In this document: positions 9,990 to 27,814 of the stretch, piece by piece
How positions within the stretch are numbered: position 1 is the first letter of the stretch
Layout: each line of letters opens with the position of its first letter
Source of the DNA: Cupriavidus necator
Lineage (GTDB): Bacteria > Pseudomonadota > Gammaproteobacteria > Burkholderiales > Burkholderiaceae
Assembly (NCBI RefSeq): GCF_016127575.1
Contig: NZ_CP066018.1
Location: 3,360,001 to 3,392,000 of the forward strand
Reading direction: 5' to 3'
Length of the DNA stretch: 32,000 bases
The notes under the pieces: generated by a model
Database searches by the model: none
What the model was told of the DNA's origin: nothing
What the model saw: only the letters and a program-made list of their open reading frames with translations
Program-made: the position numbers and the translations under genes

Positions 9990-10003
9990 TTGATCCGGAT
10001 CAA
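9990..10003. promoter_or_regulatory. perfect FNR/Anr box TTGATCCGGATCAA in a divergent promoter region
   Basis: 10/10 match to TTGAT-N4-ATCAA. A -10-like TAGACT (10025-10030) lies on the + side. A TACGCT (complement of 9963-9968) lies on the - side. Both sit about 21-22 nt from the box edge, which is class II geometry. Confidence 0.75.
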
Positions 10004-19610: not shown

Positions 19611-20405
19611 ATGTTTGACTTGCATACTGAAGCTGATGCTGTTTGTGACGCCCCCAACATGTCCGTCGCGCTCTCCAGGCGTGAGGATGAGACGTTTGCG
19701 GAGCCGGCGCCGGATCCCGCGCGGGCGCGGTGCACAACTTGCATGATGCGGAACATCTGCATGGCCGCCAGCCTGGAGGCCGGCGAAATGGCCCGCCTGG
19801 ACTCCGTCGTGCGGAGCTGGCGTTCGGTCAAGCAGGGCGAACGGCTGTACCGGGCGGGCGACCCGTTCCGCAGCCTCTATGCGGTCCGCGTCGGCTCGTT
19901 CAAGACCGTGGTGGCGCCGGAGCGGGGCAAGGAGACCATCTCCGGCTTCTACATGGCCGGGGACTCAATCGGCATGGACGGCGTTTGCCAGGAAACCCAT
20001 AACTGCGATGCGATTGCCCTGGAAGACAGCGTGGTCTGCGTGATCCCGTTTCACCAGCTCGAGGCGCTATGCCGCGAGATCAAGCCGCTGCAACGCCACC
20101 TGCACAAGATGTTCAGTGCCGAGATCGTGAGGGAATCGCGCCAGATGATGCTGTTAGGCAACAACATGTCCGCCGAGCAGCGCGTGGCGGCATTCCTGTT
20201 GAACGTCTCGGCACGCTACCGCGAACGCGGCTATTCGGCCACGTCCTTTGTGCTGCGCATGACTCGTGAAGACATCGGCAGCTTCCTTGGCATGACCCTG
20301 GAAACCGTGAGCCGGACCTTGTCCAAGTTCCAGCAGGAAGGGCTGCTGACAGTGCAGGGCAAGTCCATCGAGCTGCTCAATCTGGACGCCCTGGACGCTC
20401 GCTAG
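19611..20405 (+). CDS. fnr: FNR/Anr-type oxygen-sensing CRP-family transcription regulator
   Basis: The N-terminal Cys cluster C-X2-C-X5-C ([11 protein letters not shown]) plus the fourth Cys in VVCVIPF matches the E. coli FNR C20/C23/C29/C122 pattern. There is a cNMP-like barrel and a recognition helix [11 protein letters not shown] (E--SR). ATG has GGAGA upstream. Confidence 0.93.
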
Positions 20406-20431: not shown

Positions 20432-21994
20432 GTGAACGATGCCAGTTCTGATCCCGGAATTCCCGGCCGTCCCGGCGATGTCGTGGCCGCCGCCGCGCCC
20501 CGCGAAGTGGGGGCGCTGGTGTTCCGGCCGCTCGAGATCGATACGTGGCAGGAGCATGTCATCTATATGCATCCGGATTGCCCCGTCTGCCGCGCCGAGG
20601 GCTTTTCCGCGCAGGCGCGCGTGCGCGTGCAGATCGGCGACAGGTCGTTGATCGCCACGCTGACGCTGCTGGGCGCGCCGCTATTGAACACGGGCGAAGC
20701 GAGCCTGTCGTTGAGCGCAGCACGGACGCTTTCGGCACGCGCCGGCGATGTCGTGCATGTCACCCATGCGCCCGCGCTGGAGTCGGTGCGCGCACTGCGT
20801 GCCAAGATCTATGGCTGCCACCTGGACAGCGTCCAGCTCGACGGCATCATCGGCGACATCAGTGCAGGGCGGTACGCCGACGTGCATATTGCGGCATTCC
20901 TCACCGCCTGCGCGGACGGTCGCATGAGCCTGCGCGAGACTGTCGACCTGACCCGGGCCATGGTCCGGTCCGGCCAGCGCTTGAACTGGGACCGCGAGGT
21001 GGTTGCCGACAAGCATTGCGTCGGTGGGCTGCCGGGCAATCGCACCACGCCGGTCGTCGTGGCTATCGCGGCAGCGGCCGGGCTGCTGCTGCCCAAGACC
21101 TCATCGCGCGCGATCACCTCACCCGCCGGCACCGCCGATACGATGGAAGCCCTGACCCGCGTGACGCTGGATTCGACGGAACTGCGGCGCGTGGTAGAAC
21201 AGGTCGGGGCTGCATTGGTGTGGGGCGGCGCGCTGAGCCTGAGTCCCGCGGACGACGTGTTGATCCGCGTGGAACGCGCGCTGGATATCGACAGCGATGC
21301 GCAGCTGGTGGCCTCAATCCTGTCGAAGAAGATTGCCGCCGGCTCCACCCACGTGCTGATCGACGTGCCGGTGGGGCCGACGGCCAAGATCCGCGAAGAC
21401 AGCGATCTGGCGCGCCTGGATCTCGCCATGACCAAGGTCGCGGACGCGTTCGGGCTGAAGCTCCGGATTCTGCGCACCGACGGCTCGCAGCCGGTGGGCC
21501 GGGGCGTCGGCCCTGCGCTCGAGGCGCTCGACGTGCTGGCCGTGCTGCAGTGCCAGCCGACGGCGCCCGCCGACCTGCGCGAACGCTCGCTGCTGCTGGC
21601 GGGCGAGCTGCTGGAGTTCTGCGGTGCGATACCGCCCGGGCAGGGACGGCTGCTGGCCGGCAGCCTGCTCGACAGTGGTGCCGCCTGGGCCCGGTTCCAG
21701 GCGATCTGTGAAGCGCAAGGGGGGCTGCGCACCCCGGGGCAGGCGGTGTTCCGGCGCGACGTGGTCGCAGCCCGCAGCGGCATCGTGACGTCCGTCGACA
21801 ACCGGCACGTCGCGCGCACGGCGAAGCTGGCCGGGGCGCCGCGCCGGCAGGTGGCCGGGCTGGAACTGCATGTGCGCGCCGGCGACGAGGTCGTAGCCGG
21901 CGCACCGCTCTGTACGCTGCATGCCCAGGCGTCCGGCGAACTGGAATATGCGTTCAGCTACGCCCTGGCGCATGACCCCTTCCGCATCGAATAG
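20432..21994 (+). CDS. thymidine phosphorylase family protein of the long, AMP-phosphorylase-like type
   Basis: 520 aa. An extra ~90-aa N-terminal domain precedes the glycosyl-transferase family 3 core ([39 protein letters not shown]) and the C-terminal PYNP domain. GTG start lies 26 nt after the fnr stop. Confidence 0.85.
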
Positions 21995-22155
21995 CTCCAG
22001 TGGGCGGCCGGCAGCGGCCGCCCGCACCAGCAGCACCGGCACCGTCGATCTGCACACCTCCCCCTCGGCCACGCTGCCCATCACCAGGTGCCGGAAGCGG
22101 TTCCCGGGTGCGGGAGCGCAGACATTGCTTCCGGCTTAGGCGGGGGGTAGGCCGG

Positions 22156-22169
22156 TTGATGCGGGTCAG
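22156..22169 (+). promoter_or_regulatory. weaker FNR-like site TTGATGCGGGTCAG
   Basis: 8/10 match to the consensus. Its centre is 54 bp upstream of the stronger box at 22210-22223. Confidence 0.35.
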
Positions 22170-22204
22170 CGGGCGGGCGGTCGGCCGGCCAAGGGGACTC
22201 TGGG

Positions 22205-22278
22205 CTTCGTTGACAGCCATCAACACGCATGCGCTTGCGACCGCTACTTTGGAAATAGCCCATAGCCGAAGCCGAGGT
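22205..22278 (+). repeat. promoter-plus-leader module, copy A (FNR box, -10, leader, SD-like GAGG)
   Basis: Aligns by eye with 25333-25405. 41/48 are identical from the box through the -10, and 16/18 in the segment ending GCCGAGGT. There is one indel in between. Confidence 0.7.
22210..22223 (+). promoter_or_regulatory. FNR box TTGACAGCCATCAA
   Basis: 9/10 match. A -10-like TACTTT lies at 22245-22250, 21 nt after the box. It is 217 nt upstream of the PNPOx-like gene. Confidence 0.65.
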
Positions 22279-22439
22279 AGCTGGGGGGAGAGGCAAGACA
22301 TGGGCCTGAACCAGCCATTGCTGTCGTGGAATGAAGAAGATGCGGGGCATTTGTCCAGGAACGTGCCGGCTGGAGATCGCTCCCCCGGCCGTGCCGGCCC
22401 CGTTGGTGTTGTTTGTACTGGCGTAACAGGTGACCAAAT

Positions 22440-22892
22440 ATGGACGAAGAGACCAGACAGAAGATCCTGACCTTGTTGAACCAACACAGGATCATGACGC
22501 TTGCCACCTTGAGGCCGGATGGCTGGCCTCAGGCTACCACTGTGGGTTATGTGAATGAGGGTCTCACGCTCTACTTCCTCTGTGGTCCGGGCAGCCAAAA
22601 GGCGGCCAATCTGGCATTGGATGACCGTGTCTCGCTGACAATTGATCACGACACGCCAGATCTCATGGCGATTACCGGCCTGTCCATGGCGGCGCACGCG
22701 CAACCGGTGGTCGATGTGGCCGTAGCGGAGAGAATCCTCCGGATGTTCCCATTGAAGTATCCGGAGCAGATTGCCTTGCCAGTGCCGATGCCAACCGCGG
22801 AGGACGTCCGAATATTCAGGGTGACCCCGACAGTCATTTCCGTGCTCGACTATTCCAAGGGCTTCGGACATACGGATCTTGTCAGCTGCTGA
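22440..22892 (+). CDS. pyridoxamine 5'-phosphate oxidase-family (FMN-binding split-barrel) protein
   Basis: 150 aa with ILTLLNQHRIMTLATLRPDGWPQATTVGY...LYFLCGPGSQKAANL...VSLTID, typical of small PNPOx-like flavoproteins. GC3 is lower than in the surrounding genes. Confidence 0.8.
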   Translation: MDEETRQKILTLLNQHRIMTLATLRPDGWPQATTVGYVNEGLTLYFLCGPGSQKAANLALDDRVSLTIDHDTPDLMAITGLSMAAHAQPVVDVAVAERILRMFPLKYPEQIALPVPMPTAEDVRIFRVTPTVISVLDYSKGFGHTDLVSC

Positions 22893-22944
22893 CACCTGGG
22901 TCCGCTGAGGGAAGTCAAGAGACCTTTCGTTGCGGAGGTGTGCC

Positions 22945-23874
22945 GTGCGCAAGATGTGGGCGGTGCTCGTCATGCCAGCCATTAGTCTGTGCCGCTGCGG
23001 CCAGCGCCCTCGGTGGTGCCAGTTGAACCTGCGCACGGCCGCGCGAGGCCTGCTTCTGGTGCTGACTGCCTTCGTGTTTCCCGGAGCCATCGCCGAGGTT
23101 GCCGTTCCGTCATTGACGGCGCGAGTGACTGACCTGACTGGTACGCTAACGCGCGCACAGCAGGCGTCCCTGGACCAGACGCTGCAGGCCTTCGAAGCCA
23201 GGAAGGGAGCTCAGGTTGCAGTTCTCATGGTTCCCACTACCCGACCGGAAACCATCGAACAGTATTCGCTTCGCGTGGTCGAGCAATGGAAGCTGGGACG
23301 TAACCGCGTTGATGACGGCGCGCTGCTCATCATCGCCAAGGACGACCGCACGCTTCGTATTGAGGTGGGTTACGGGCTCGAAGGCGTCCTGACTGACGCC
23401 GCGAGCAAGCGCATCATCAGTGATGATATCGTGCCCCGATTCAAGCGGGGCGACTTCTATGGCGGTGTGTCTGCGGGCATCGACCGCATGCTTGGGGTCA
23501 TCGAAGGGGAGCCACTGCCACCTCCGGAGGAAAGAGCAGGGGATACGGGTGACCCCGTCCGGCAACTGATGCCAATCCTGCTTGTGCTCACTCTGGTTCT
23601 GGGTGGGTTACTGCGTTCCATGCTGGGGCGCTTCCCGGGTGCAGTCGCGACGGGTGGGGCCGTTGGAGTGGTCGCGTGGATGCTTTCTGGCGCCATCTTT
23701 GCCGGCATCGTTGCAGGGGCAATCGCGCTCTTGTTCACGCTGATGGGTGGCCCGCACATGGGCTTGCTGGCTATCGGCGGCCGCTCGGGAAGATATGGCG
23801 GCCGGTCGGGGCCCGGGGGATTCGGCGGCGGTGGCGGCGGCTTTGGCGGTGGTGGTGCTTCCGGCAAGTGGTGA
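22945..23874 (+). CDS. TPM-domain (YgcG-like) membrane protein with Gly-rich C-terminal tail
   Basis: Signal-like segment, then TPM text (VTDLTGTLTRAQQASLDQTLQAFEARKGAQVAVLMV...LLIIAKDDRTLRIEVGYGLEGVLTD). TM helices and a GGGGGFGGGGASGKW tail follow. GTG 22945 has GGAGG 6 nt upstream; TTG 22930 and ATG 22954 are alternatives. Confidence 0.82.
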   Translation: MRKMWAVLVMPAISLCRCGQRPRWCQLNLRTAARGLLLVLTAFVFPGAIAEVAVPSLTARVTDLTGTLTRAQQASLDQTLQAFEARKGAQVAVLMVPTTRPETIEQYSLRVVEQWKLGRNRVDDGALLIIAKDDRTLRIEVGYGLEGVLTDAASKRIISDDIVPRFKRGDFYGGVSAGIDRMLGVIEGEPLPPPEERAGDTGDPVRQLMPILLVLTLVLGGLLRSMLGRFPGAVATGGAVGVVAWMLSGAIFAGIVAGAIALLFTLMGGPHMGLLAIGGRSGRYGGRSGPGGFGGGGGGFGGGGASGKW

Positions 23875-23972
23875 TGGCAAACATCAATCACATCTTGCGG
23901 CGTCCGCCGAGGGGGCGAAAATGGCGATATTTGGATGTGAAATGGCTGGGCAGCTATGTAACCCTTGGGCCC

Positions 23973-24002
23973 TATAATTATTTCGATATCTGCCGACATC
24001 GA
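23973..24002 (+). promoter_or_regulatory. candidate ald promoter -10 (TATAAT) followed by a 20-bp near-palindrome
   Basis: A perfect TATAAT at 23973-23978 sits in the only AT-rich stretch of this intergenic region. TCGATATCTGCCGACATCGA (23983-24002) pairs at 8 of 10 positions. No convincing -35 was found. Confidence 0.3.
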
Positions 24003-24126
24003 GGCTGCCATGCAGGTGTTGCCATACGTGTGGCCACGGACAGGCCTCGGTGCATCCGGCCGTGGACTGAGGATTCAAGCACCTGGTGCGGAATCTGCCG
24101 AATTACCACGCGCGTGAGCAAAGGCC

Positions 24127-25242
24127 ATGTGGATCGGCGTGCCTAAAGAAGTCAAGGACAACGAGTACCGGGTTGGCCTGGCGCCTGCCTGCGTGCGCGA
24201 ACTTGTCAGCCGCGGTCACCAGGTCATGGTCCAGGCCGGGGCCGGGGCCGCGCTTGGCCTTTCCGACGCGCAATACGAAGCGGCTGGCGCGAAGCTGGCT
24301 GCCGATGCGAAGGCCGTGTACGACCGGGCCCAGATGATTGTCAAGGTCAAGGAGCCACAACCACGCGAACTGGCGCTGCTCAGGCCCGGGCAGATCCTCT
24401 ATGCATACCTGCACCTGGCCGCGGACCGTGAGCTGACTGCCGCGCTGCTGCAATCCGGCGCGGTCTGCATCGCCTATGAGACGGTTACGGGGCCTGACGG
24501 TGGTCTGCCGCTGCTGGCCCCCATGAGCGAGGTCGCCGGCCGCATGTCAGTCCAGGTGGCGGCAGCCTACCTCGAGAAGCCGAACGGCGGCATGGGACTG
24601 CTGCTCGGCGGCGTCCCGGGCGTCGCGCCGGCACATGTCGTGGTGATCGGCGCCGGCGTGGTGGGCGCCAATGCTGTCCAGATCGCGGTTGGCATGGGGG
24701 CGCGCGTGACGGTATTGGACAAGAATATCGAACGACTGCGGCATCTCGGCTCCGTGTACGGCAATCGAGTCGTGACGGTCTACTCCAGCGCTGACAGTAT
24801 CGAGCGCGCGTTGCTCTCGGCCGATGCGGTCATCGGCGCGGTGCTGGTGCCTGGCGCCGAGGCGCCCAGGCTGGTCACGCGTGCGATGGTCGCGCGCATG
24901 AAAGCGGGTTCGGTGCTGGTGGATGTGGCGATAGACCAGGGAGGCTGCGCCGAGACATCGCGCCCGACCAGCCATACGGATCCGACCTATGTGGTGGACG
25001 GCGTGCTGCACTACTGCGTGACCAACATGCCGGCAGCGGTGGCGAGGACCTCCACCTTTGCCCTGAACAACTCCACGATCGGTCATGCGATGGCCCTTGC
25101 CGACAAGGGATGGTCCCGCGCGCTCTCAGACGACCCCTACCTGCGGGCCGGGCTGAATATCTGTCGCGGGAGTGTGACTTATGCGGCCGTCGCAAGCGCC
25201 CATGGCTACGCCCATGTACCCGCCGAGCAGGTGCTGACCTGA
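24127..25242 (+). CDS. ald: alanine dehydrogenase
   Basis: 371 aa. N-terminus [20 protein letters not shown], Rossmann motif [13 protein letters not shown], and C-terminal text typical of L-alanine dehydrogenase. Confidence 0.95.
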
Positions 25243-25259
25243 GCGCGGCCGCCAGTATC

Positions 25260-25281
25260 GGCCGACACGTTGCTGTCGGCC
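25260..25281 (+). terminator. stem-loop after ald
   Basis: 8-bp stem GGCCGACA / TGTCGGCC with a 6-nt loop, 18 nt after the ald stop. There is no U-tract. Confidence 0.35.
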
Positions 25282-25332
25282 ACCCCTGGTGCAGCAGCCC
25301 TGCCATGAGCCGAATCACAGCGGTGTGGCTGG

Positions 25333-25405
25333 CTTGGTTGACTGGCATCAACCCGCATGTCCTTGCGACCGCTAATTTGGGATGAACCACAGCCAAAGCC
25401 GAGGT
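25333..25405 (+). repeat. promoter-plus-leader module, copy B
   Basis: See 22205-22278. In this copy the module ends 4 nt before the USP ATG at 25410. Confidence 0.7.
25338..25351 (+). promoter_or_regulatory. FNR box TTGACTGGCATCAA
   Basis: 9/10 match. A -10-like TAATTT lies at 25373-25378. It is 59 nt upstream of the USP start. Confidence 0.7.
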
Positions 25406-25409
25406 CGCC

Positions 25410-25874
25410 ATGTACCGCCGCATTCTCCTAGCCCTCGATGGCAGCCGTTCATCCTTGAATGCCCTGGAGCAGGCCGTGTCGATGGCGCTGACCACCGACG
25501 CCGAGGTCAGCGCCATGTTCGTCGTCGACGACAGCGACCTGTTCTTCGAGGTCAGCCCGGGTGACCGGCACTGGCTGATGGCCGACATCATTGCCTATGG
25601 CAAGCAGGTGCTGGCTCGTGCCGGCGAGCGCTTCAGCGCCGCCGGCGTGCGCTGGAGCAGCAGGTTGGCCGAGACGCCCGGCACCCCTGCGAAGATTGCC
25701 GAGGCGATCATCGCGGAAGCGGACCACTGGAGCGCGGACCTGATCGTCATGGGCACACACGGCCATCGCGGCGTGCGGCGCATGGTGCTGGGCTCGGTCT
25801 CGGAGCACGTGGTCAGCAAGACGGTTCGCCCCGTGCTGCTCGTTCGGCAGCAGTCGCGCGGCGATACGCCCTGA
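25410..25874 (+). CDS. universal stress protein (single USP domain)
   Basis: MYRRILLALDGS...ADLIVMGTHGHRGVRRMVLGSVSEHVVSKTVRPVLLVR, including the ATP-binding-type G-x2-G-x9-G-S motif. Confidence 0.92.
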   Translation: MYRRILLALDGSRSSLNALEQAVSMALTTDAEVSAMFVVDDSDLFFEVSPGDRHWLMADIIAYGKQVLARAGERFSAAGVRWSSRLAETPGTPAKIAEAIIAEADHWSADLIVMGTHGHRGVRRMVLGSVSEHVVSKTVRPVLLVRQQSRGDTP

Positions 25875-25926
25875 CCGTTCGGTTCCGGCCTGCGAAAACC
25901 CCAATAATTCTTCCGGAGTGACGCAA

Positions 25927-26406
25927 ATGCAGGTTTCAAGAAGCCTAGGCCTCGGCCTATCGTCGCTGGCGATTGCCGTTGCGGCGGCGGGTTGCGCCAC
26001 TCGCGCCGCGCCCGCTGGCGTGCAGATCATGGAGCAGCACGGCGTTTCCTACGTATCGGGTGGAGACGATGAGGCGGGCATGCAAAGCATGCTGGCCATC
26101 GCCGCGCGTTTCAATGTACGGCTGACGATGGTGGATGCCGGGCGCGGGAAGCCGCTGGGCGGTGCCACGGTGGTCGTGGCCAGCCAGGAGGGCCGCCCCG
26201 TGCTGCACACTACGGCTAGCGGGCCGCTGTTCTATATGCGACTCAGGCCGGGTGCCTATCGGCTCGCTGTCGGCTACCAGGGGCGGGACCAGATGCGCGA
26301 CATCGTCGTCGCTGGCGAGCCGCTCGAGGTGACGTTCCGGCTGCCGGTCAATACGCTCGAGGACGACTGGCTGCTCTGCGCCACGACACCCTGTCCGCGT
26401 CGCTGA
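25927..26406 (+). CDS. CarboxypepD_reg-like domain lipoprotein, paralog family member 2
   Basis: Lipobox-like AAAGC after a hydrophobic signal. It has the YVSGG block and the beta-sandwich pattern GGATVVVASQEGRPV...LRPGAYRLAVGYQG. ATG 25927 has GGAG 9 nt upstream; GTG 25918 is an alternative start. Confidence 0.72.
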   Translation: MQVSRSLGLGLSSLAIAVAAAGCATRAAPAGVQIMEQHGVSYVSGGDDEAGMQSMLAIAARFNVRLTMVDAGRGKPLGGATVVVASQEGRPVLHTTASGPLFYMRLRPGAYRLAVGYQGRDQMRDIVVAGEPLEVTFRLPVNTLEDDWLLCATTPCPRR

Positions 26407-26652: not shown

Positions 26653-26666
26653 TTGACACGTATCAA
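26653..26666 (+). promoter_or_regulatory. FNR box TTGACACGTATCAA
   Basis: 9/10 match. A -10-like TACGCT lies at 26688-26693. It is 85 nt upstream of the USP start. Confidence 0.7.
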
Positions 26667-27585: not shown

Positions 27586-27804
27586 ATGAAGAATCGCTTG
27601 CAGTCATGCACACCGGAGAAACGGCCAGGATGGCGCAGGCTTGCCGCCTGCGCGTTGGTGCCGCTATGCACAGCGTGTACCGCCGTACCGGACCTGCTGC
27701 GGCCGCCGAAGCCACGCACCGCCGCGCTGGCGGCAGGCAGCCTGGGCCAACTCGTACCTGGTGCCAGCGGTATTGCCTGTAGCGCGGACACGAAGACGGC
27801 TTGA
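27586..27804 (+). CDS. small (72 aa) putative exported/lipoprotein-like protein
   Basis: Perfect AAGGAG lies 6 nt upstream of the ATG. The N-terminus is basic, followed by the hydrophobic segment LAACALVPLCTAC. Low complexity afterwards lowers confidence. Confidence 0.45.
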   Translation: MKNRLQSCTPEKRPGWRRLAACALVPLCTACTAVPDLLRPPKPRTAALAAGSLGQLVPGASGIACSADTKTA

Positions 27805-27814
27805 TGCACGACAA
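27801..27814 (+). promoter_or_regulatory. FNR-like box TTGATGCACGACAA
   Basis: 8/10 match. A -10-like TATAGA lies at 27834-27839. It is 69 nt upstream of the tandem USP start and overlaps the stop codon of the small ORF. Confidence 0.5.

Follow-up and report, generated by a model that had tools for sequence, protein, structure and literature searches.

Duplication of a putative FNR-type promoter ahead of two unrelated genes in a Cupriavidus gene island

Genes and features at the locus

The window (the whole 32,000-nt stretch of Cupriavidus necator DNA that was analysed) harbours a gene for an FNR-family regulator, followed by a thymidine/AMP-phosphorylase-like (TP-like) gene, a first copy of a repeated segment (copy A), a block of genes headed by a PNPOx-family gene (the PNPOx block) and a second copy of the repeat (copy B). 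On the 3' side of copy B, the gene USP154, encoding a universal stress protein (USP), is followed by two more USP genes and then, on the other strand, by phaC2/phaB. According to the Pfam matches, the content of this island comprises the FNR gene, several USP genes, a small heat-shock gene and phaC2/phaB. The coordinates of the features discussed here are collected in Table 1.

Table 1. Features of the locus, with positions counted from the first letter of the window; functional labels of promoter elements are predictions.
Feature	Coordinates	Strand	Remarks
FNR-family regulator gene	19611-20405	+	264 aa; 1.8 kb upstream of copy A
TP-like gene	20432-21994		
Remnant of a divergent USP gene with decayed FNR box	22010-22169	-	last 28 codons at 22010-22093; box at 22156-22169
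Copy A cassette	22203-22281	+	FNR-type promoter and first ~24 nt of the predicted transcript; aligns to 25331-25408
FNR box, copy A, TTGACAGCCATCAA	22210-22223	+	exact TTGAC-N4-ATCAA, 0 mismatches
-10 hexamer, copy A, TACTTT	22245-22250	+	starts 35 nt after box start
GAGG, copy A	22274-22277	+	aligns to GAGG at 25401-25404; next ATG only at 22300
PNPOx-specific leader	22282-22439	+	unrelated to copy B; holds the small-ORF start, a GC hairpin and a T-rich tract
Block between the copies (PNPOx-TPM-GYD-ald)	22440-25242	+	Pfam, tblastn
PNPOx-family gene	22440-22892	+	150 aa; Pfam
TPM-domain gene	22930-23874	+	Pfam
GYD remnant, frameshifted	23874-24100	+	GYD tblastn, two different frames
Alanine dehydrogenase gene (ald)	24127-25242	+	Pfam
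Copy B cassette	25331-25408	+	FNR-type promoter and complete short USP154 5' UTR, as predicted
FNR box, copy B, TTGACTGGCATCAA	25338-25351	+	exact TTGAC-N4-ATCAA, 0 mismatches; half-sites invariant in 9/9 orthologues
-10 hexamer, copy B, TAATTT	25373-25378	+	starts 35 nt after box start
SD GAGG, copy B	25401-25404	+	5 nt before the USP154 ATG at 25410
USP154	25410-25874	+	universal stress protein; Pfam PF00582, E 6e-27

A protein identical to that of USP154 is encoded in many C. necator-type assemblies, on a chromosome of about 4.05-4.14 Mb, and nearly all homologues of USP154 were from Cupriavidus. For the PNPOx protein, thousands of homologues were found at E < 1e-25, and it was 83-87% identical to proteins of Mesorhizobium, Paraburkholderia and Steroidobacteraceae. 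This might reflect conservation of unusual strength between classes or, alternatively, horizontal transfer. The GYD sequence in the window looks like a frameshifted pseudogene; in C. necator GCA_964252715 (locus L014, 7435-7698), the GYD gene flanked by the TPM gene and ald is intact.

Extent and uniqueness of the repeat

Local alignment of 22203-22281 with 25331-25408 gave 64 identical positions out of 79 (81%), with one 1-nt gap, and the first 50 nt of the pair aligned gap-free with 86% identity. The two copies are 3.1 kb apart in the window. The first-pass annotation, which was made by eye from the letters of the sequence, had described two segments aligning over their full length, with 41/48 and 16/18 identities in the first and last parts; the full-length alignment was confirmed, and both counts were near the computed identities. 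The core coordinates that it gave were right, while its edges fell slightly short, as the homology runs a few bases further on both sides (GGCTT on the left and GC on the right). Its description of the surroundings was also accurate: copy B lies 4 nt before the ATG of a USP gene, unrelated sequence of 161 nt separates copy A from the ATG of the PNPOx gene, and an ORF of 56 aa plus stop, preceded by GGAGAGG, is present at 22300-22470. The identity between the copies is not confined to the box and the -10 hexamer, but reaches past both.

The match between copies A and B had a blastn E value of 1.5e-15, and the next-best match of the copy A region in the window had an E value of at least 0.19. 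The spacer plus -10 motif CTTGCGACCGCTANTTTGG was found at exactly two sites in the window at up to 3 mismatches, compared with 0.04 expected by chance. By neither this motif search nor blastn was a third copy of the cassette found in the window. Outside the window, a degenerate pattern covering the known A and B copies matched four loci, two per genome, in 'Ralstonia pickettii' RAL3 and in amp6; the scan returned these two genomes only, and missed other Cupriavidus sequences that match the pattern. A blastn search of plasmids gave one or two copies per Cupriavidus megaplasmid. Every copy from the pattern scan and from the megaplasmids was located before a PNPOx gene or before USP154, in promoter orientation. 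These results bear on the possibility that the pair belongs to a generic dispersed repeat (REP- or MITE-like) with an FNR-like palindrome arising by chance. Nothing beyond the existence of two copies speaks for such a repeat, while the low copy number per genome and the constant position of the copies argue against it, and we regard it as scarcely credible.

Promoter organization and putative regulator

FNR boxes are inverted repeats with the consensus TTGAT-N4-ATCAA, around a TTGA-N6-TCAA core, and in class II FNR/CRP promoters the box is centred near -41.5, over the -35 region. Copies A and B have the same layout, consisting of a perfect box, 21 nt and a TAnnnT hexamer. As the TAnnnT hexamer starts 35 nt after the start of the box, the centre of the box would be placed near -41.5, which is the class II FNR arrangement. 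From this geometry, we infer that transcription starts near 22257-22258 for copy A and near 25385-25386 for copy B, which would leave USP154 with a leader of about 25 nt. No promoter was returned by a simple sigma-70 scan of 21900-26000, a result expected of activator-dependent promoters without a -35 element.

The GAGG of copy A has no start codon at a working distance, and for this reason it is apparently a vestigial SD, inherited from the USP154 leader. The corresponding position in copy A of DTP0602 reads GGGG.

Boxes of the form TTGAC-N4-ATCAA were enriched about 10-fold in the window, with 8 found at up to one mismatch compared with 0.75 expected. The layout of a box, 21 nt and TAnnnT was shared by six promoters in the window, copies A and B included. 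In the four others, the 21-nt spacers were related neither to one another nor to the cassette, and the spacer sequence is therefore no general requirement of the regulon. The same 35-nt geometry was seen for the box at 26653-26666, leading to TACGCT, and for the box at 27801-27814, leading to TAGATT. A palindromic box at 9990-10003, situated between divergent genes, has the geometry in both directions (TAGACT and TACGCT), which suggests a bidirectional FNR-dependent promoter.

The product of the regulator gene upstream of copy A scored 224.6 bits against the NCBIfam model of the Fnr subfamily (NF008365), just below the cut-off of 228. It carries a C-X2-C-X5-C cluster near its N-terminus, its recognition helix reads E-T-V-S-R (ETVSR), and it is the probable activator of both boxes. 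Based on their geometry and on the conservation described below, copies A and B are assigned as putative class II FNR-dependent promoters. They resemble the class II promoters of E. coli FNR and Pseudomonas Anr in the perfect box, in the -10 hexamer at 35 nt, in the absence of a recognisable -35 element and in the proximity of an FNR-subfamily regulator with a Cys cluster. No essential difference from those promoters was noted, the likeness here being one of sequence.

Comparative loci and age of the duplication

The loci compared were those around USP154 and PNPOx orthologues, those from the reference-genome pattern scan and those from megaplasmids. In all of six island lineages, copy A was located before PNPOx and copy B before USP154. 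These lineages were the H16-like strains, DTP0602 (CP006667), 'Ralstonia pickettii' RAL3 chromosome 3, GCA_964252715, Cupriavidus sp. amp6 and plasmid p1 of C. necator C39. Copy B was present before USP154 in nine further lineages besides the window. The two copies are 18 kb apart in DTP0602. In all lineages, copy A had C and copy B had G as the third base of the box N4, ATGC in copy A corresponded to ATGT in copy B, and the copies differed by a 1-nt indel in the leader. The presence of the two copies at the same two genes and the retention of copy-specific bases across lineages indicate that the duplication predates the divergence of the lineages. The order of the lineages was inferred from island sequence identity and not from a species tree, and the island appears to move between replicons. 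The first-pass annotation had proposed that a whole regulatory cassette was recently duplicated or transplanted. The duplication or transplantation is supported, and its recency is ruled out by the comparative loci, with both copies at the same genes in at least six lineages.

Recurrent gene conversion between copies A and B, or a recent replacement, would also give a young similarity at old loci. Some sharing within genomes was indeed observed: both amp6 copies read GAATG and both copies of the necator-type islands GCATG, the copy A state TACTTT also occurs in copy B of DTP0602 and of RAL3, and copies A and B of RAL3 are closely similar (92/100). This species-specific sharing concerned only one or two sites, however, and the box N4, the ATGC/ATGT difference and the leader indel stayed copy-specific throughout. 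In addition, the 81% identity of the copies in the window is about that of the window and amp6 orthologues (76-84%). Gene conversion or replacement as the source of the A/B similarity is thus considered very unlikely, and an old duplication is preferred.

The duplicated unit extends from -28 to +72 relative to the start of the box in RAL3, with 92 of 100 positions identical, and from -23 to +72 in DTP0602 (85/95). The unit in the relatives, of about 100 nt, is 21-28 nt longer upstream than that in the window, whereas its right edge is identical everywhere, just past GAGGTnGC. The longer unit in the relatives indicates that copy B has a later, secondary breakpoint as its left edge in the window (25331), which arose when ald came to adjoin it.

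The low-oxygen island (fnr, the TP-like gene and USP genes, with or without the PNPOx block) is located on chromosome 1 in H16-like strains, and on secondary replicons of 1.2-2.0 Mb elsewhere (C39 p1, the C. oxalaticus X32 plasmid, KK10 p1, P-10 pMTS1 and 'chromosome 3' of RAL3). The gene order of the island differs in nearly every lineage. An example of decay of the copy B unit was seen in GCA_964252715 (L014/L015, 8955-9342), in which a deletion beginning within the leader has left, behind an intact copy B, no more of USP154 than a C-terminal fragment of 60 aa.

Conservation outside the box and the -10 hexamer

Invariance was assessed in nine copy B orthologues together with the USP154 coding sequence, using a one-sided Fisher test against the four-fold degenerate sites of USP154, 28 of 62 of which were invariant (0.45). 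The box half-sites were the sole region above the four-fold sites (10/10 invariant, p = 0.001). The values were 5/6 for the -10 hexamer (p = 0.086), 3/14 for the leader before the SD (p = 0.98) and 7/10 from the SD to the ATG (p = 0.13). For the whole 21-nt spacer, 11/21 positions were invariant (p = 0.37), and for its 3' half, CTTGCGACCGC, 8/11 (p = 0.087), in a test of little power given about 20 sites and nine related sequences, so that some weak additional constraint is conceivable.

Conservation well beyond the contacts of FNR and sigma-70 had been taken in the first-pass annotation as a possible sign that some further element is conserved, for instance a site for a second protein. In its most explicit form, the spacer half CTTGCGACCGC with the flanking TTTGG would be the site of a second regulator or an alternative-sigma element, and selection would keep copies A and B alike; a stationary-phase sigma favouring C at -13 is a candidate. 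The invariance of the 3' half of the spacer is in keeping with this, as are its near identity in all six copy A sequences, the C directly before the TA of the -10 hexamer in both copies and the 92% identity of the RAL3 pair. The excess of the 3' half over the four-fold sites was not significant, however, the four other island promoters with the same layout have unrelated spacers, and no dyad symmetry common to both copies was present. The spacer also decays in distant orthologues. Its identity to the window was 20/22 in C. taiwanensis (four-fold-site identity 0.80) and 17-19/22 in amp6 (0.79-0.82), but 12/23 in YR651 (0.64) and 8/22 in C. respiraculi (0.53), even though the box (12/14 and 11/14, respectively) and the -10 hexamer were kept in the last two. 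As spacer identity tracks four-fold identity, the similarity outside the box and the -10 hexamer is what is expected from common descent. A role of the spacer as a second site is therefore judged unlikely, and the identity of A and B outside the box and the -10 hexamer would be inherited, undecayed similarity rather than a second functional element. The narrower proposal, that CTTGCGACCGC with the -10-proximal TTTGG is a co-regulator operator or sigma-selectivity element that sets PNPOx and USP154 apart from the island's other FNR promoters as a sub-regulon and is kept by selection or conversion, is rated quite improbable.

The 92% identity of copies A and B in RAL3 exceeds the neutral expectation (four-fold identity about 0.8) for a duplication older than the split from amp6, and some constraint or gene conversion may contribute to it.

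Leader RNA and the leader of the PNPOx operon

The second form of extra element suggested in the first-pass annotation was a leader RNA structure, and folding and covariation analyses were performed. No Rfam match was obtained in the window at the gathering threshold, nor in 22100-22500 at E <= 10. The 195-nt PNPOx leader did not fold better than its shuffles (z = +1.1), and the consensus fold of five PNPOx leader sequences had an unfavourable covariation term (+2.08), with 1 of 27 pairs compensatory. The copy B leader, of about 25 nt as predicted, was unstructured, and the transcribed stretch of about 24 nt shared by the two copies folded like shuffled sequences. Folding of the entire cassettes likewise yielded nothing that stood out from shuffled sequences. 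The only observation in favour of a leader RNA fold common to both transcripts, be it a riboswitch, a thermometer or an sRNA target, was a 10-bp stem in the copy A DNA, GCTACTTTGG/CCGAGGTAGC, in which the -10 and SD regions pair (z = -1.9). One arm of this stem coincides with the -10 region, which precedes the predicted start and is not expected in the transcript, and the stem is broken in copy B. A conserved leader RNA was accordingly dropped as a candidate, and is regarded as highly improbable.

The leader specific to PNPOx contains a GC hairpin, GGCCGTGCCGGCC, followed by a T-rich tract (about 22391-22420), some 20 nt before the PNPOx start, and this element was matched by a terminator scan. 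Its counterpart in amp6 has a longer stem (CGCGGCC-ATGCC-GGCCGCG). The hairpin may be an attenuator; significant covariation was absent in it.

The ORF at 22300-22470 had been regarded at first as a possible vestige or leader peptide. Among the relatives, it spans 56 aa in the H16-like strains, 41 in three lineages and 34 in DTP0602, and it is absent in amp6. These differences in length are due to frame-shifting indels of 1-2 nt, and just the first ~26 codons are common to the relatives, followed by three different C-termini. Substitutions, as read from the alignment, were not concentrated at third positions. The ORF had no Pfam match, and its two database homologues, both from Cupriavidus, were the 41-aa versions from the same leader. 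As neither the frame nor the length is conserved, the ORF was rejected as a conserved gene, a leader peptide or a recognisable vestige.

Origin and direction of the duplication

The USP154 orthologues of C. taiwanensis, YR651 and C. respiraculi (70-83% amino acid identity) are each preceded by just one FNR-box promoter, of the same geometry. The leaders of these distant USP154 genes end in CCGAGGT-GCC-ATG, with the box and the -10 hexamer kept and the spacer not. In YR651, the sequence upstream of the single cassette aligns to the copy A context of DTP0602 (154/235), and the downstream gene is USP154. This upstream alignment takes in the divergent USP gene (75% amino acid identity) and its own FNR box. 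In Paraburkholderia, the PNPOx gene follows a short leader and an unrelated promoter with an FNR box. Taken together, the context in YR651, the PNPOx promoter of Paraburkholderia and the orphan GAGG of copy A indicate that the ancestral cassette was the promoter of USP154.

For the remnant of the divergent USP gene in the window, tblastn gave 82% identity to DTP0602 USP151 at E 3e-12, in agreement with the blastn synteny blocks. The FNR box of this remnant, CTGACCCGCATCAA, has decayed together with its hexamer. The remnant and its box would mark the ancestral upstream context of the cassette, next to which copy A now lies. Two things present in DTP0602 have been lost from the window, a cation-transporting ATPase gene and the greater part of the divergent USP gene.

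In C. oxalaticus and on the P-10 plasmid, no PNPOx block separates the TP-like gene from USP154. On pMTS1 of P-10, the order was fnr, the TP-like gene, a single cassette and USP154. This arrangement was considered as an A x B recombinant that had lost the PNPOx block, and the 125 nt upstream of its cassette matched neither flank in the window, so that this origin gained no support. On the C. oxalaticus chromosome (L011, 6426-6501), USP154 (75% identical) lies 74 nt after the TP-like gene; the FNR box is absent and only the end of the leader, CCGAGGTTGCC-ATG, is kept. This chromosomal USP154 has probably been fused into the upstream operon. A second USP154, 90% identical and with the full cassette, was present on the C. 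oxalaticus plasmid (L026).

Discussion

We have considerable confidence that copies A and B are class II FNR-dependent promoters descended from one USP154 promoter through duplication of about 100 nt. In the mechanism that we infer, the TTGAC-N4-ATCAA box would be bound at low oxygen by a [4Fe-4S] regulator of the FNR type, which is probably the product of the gene 1.8 kb upstream. With the centre of the box about 41.5 nt ahead of the start, this regulator would bring RNA polymerase to the TA(C/A)TTT hexamer. Transcription from copy B would then yield a short unstructured leader with the GAGG 5 nt before the USP154 start codon. In an ancestor of the island, a unit beginning 28 nt ahead of the box and ending just after the SD would have been duplicated, and the PNPOx-TPM-GYD-ald block would have ended up between the two copies. 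Copy A would have stayed in the original position by the divergent USP gene, and would now transcribe the PNPOx operon through a leader of about 160 nt of another origin, while copy B would have remained attached to USP154. As to the route, a tandem duplication followed by deletion and a Campbell-type integration of a circle carrying a copy of the cassette are both possible.

The pair is similar to cases of promoter capture by segmental duplication, in that a sharp-ended unit of about 100 nt is found before two unrelated genes, and in that the copied unit includes an SD which would be functional at just one of them. The difference from such cases is that no mobile-element hallmarks flank the duplicated unit in the window. 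The pair is an ordinary promoter duplication in a rearranging low-oxygen island, and no new type of regulatory element is revealed by it. Its interest is as a datable case of a gene block wired into an existing regulon by a copied promoter and 5' UTR. The newly adjacent operon of PNPOx, TPM and alanine dehydrogenase genes would have gained the same FNR-type control as a stress-protein gene, and the prediction for C. necator is that oxygen limitation induces the genes of the PNPOx operon together with the USP genes. The literature provided nothing usable on the expression in C. necator of the genes discussed here. The cassette itself can be viewed as a compact, probably oxygen-responsive promoter.

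The island may be compared with the low-oxygen-activated (lxa) locus of Burkholderia cenocepacia, a USP-rich locus with a TGA-N6-TCA motif at 17 intergenic points (PMC3721108). As far as the available part of that description goes, the two have in common USPs, an alpha-crystallin-type sHSP, a Crp/Fnr regulator, and PHA and nucleotide-metabolism genes, and promoter paralogy is not discussed in it (PMC3721108). By its gene content and motif enrichment, the island in the window would qualify as an lxa-type low-oxygen island. It differs from the lxa locus, as described there, in genus and in gene order, and in being located, depending on the strain, on chromosome 1 or on secondary replicons of 1.2-2 Mb (PMC3721108). 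Repetition of the TGA-N6-TCA motif is a feature of both, with the 17 points of the lxa locus in that description compared with at least six promoter-like sites in the window (PMC3721108).
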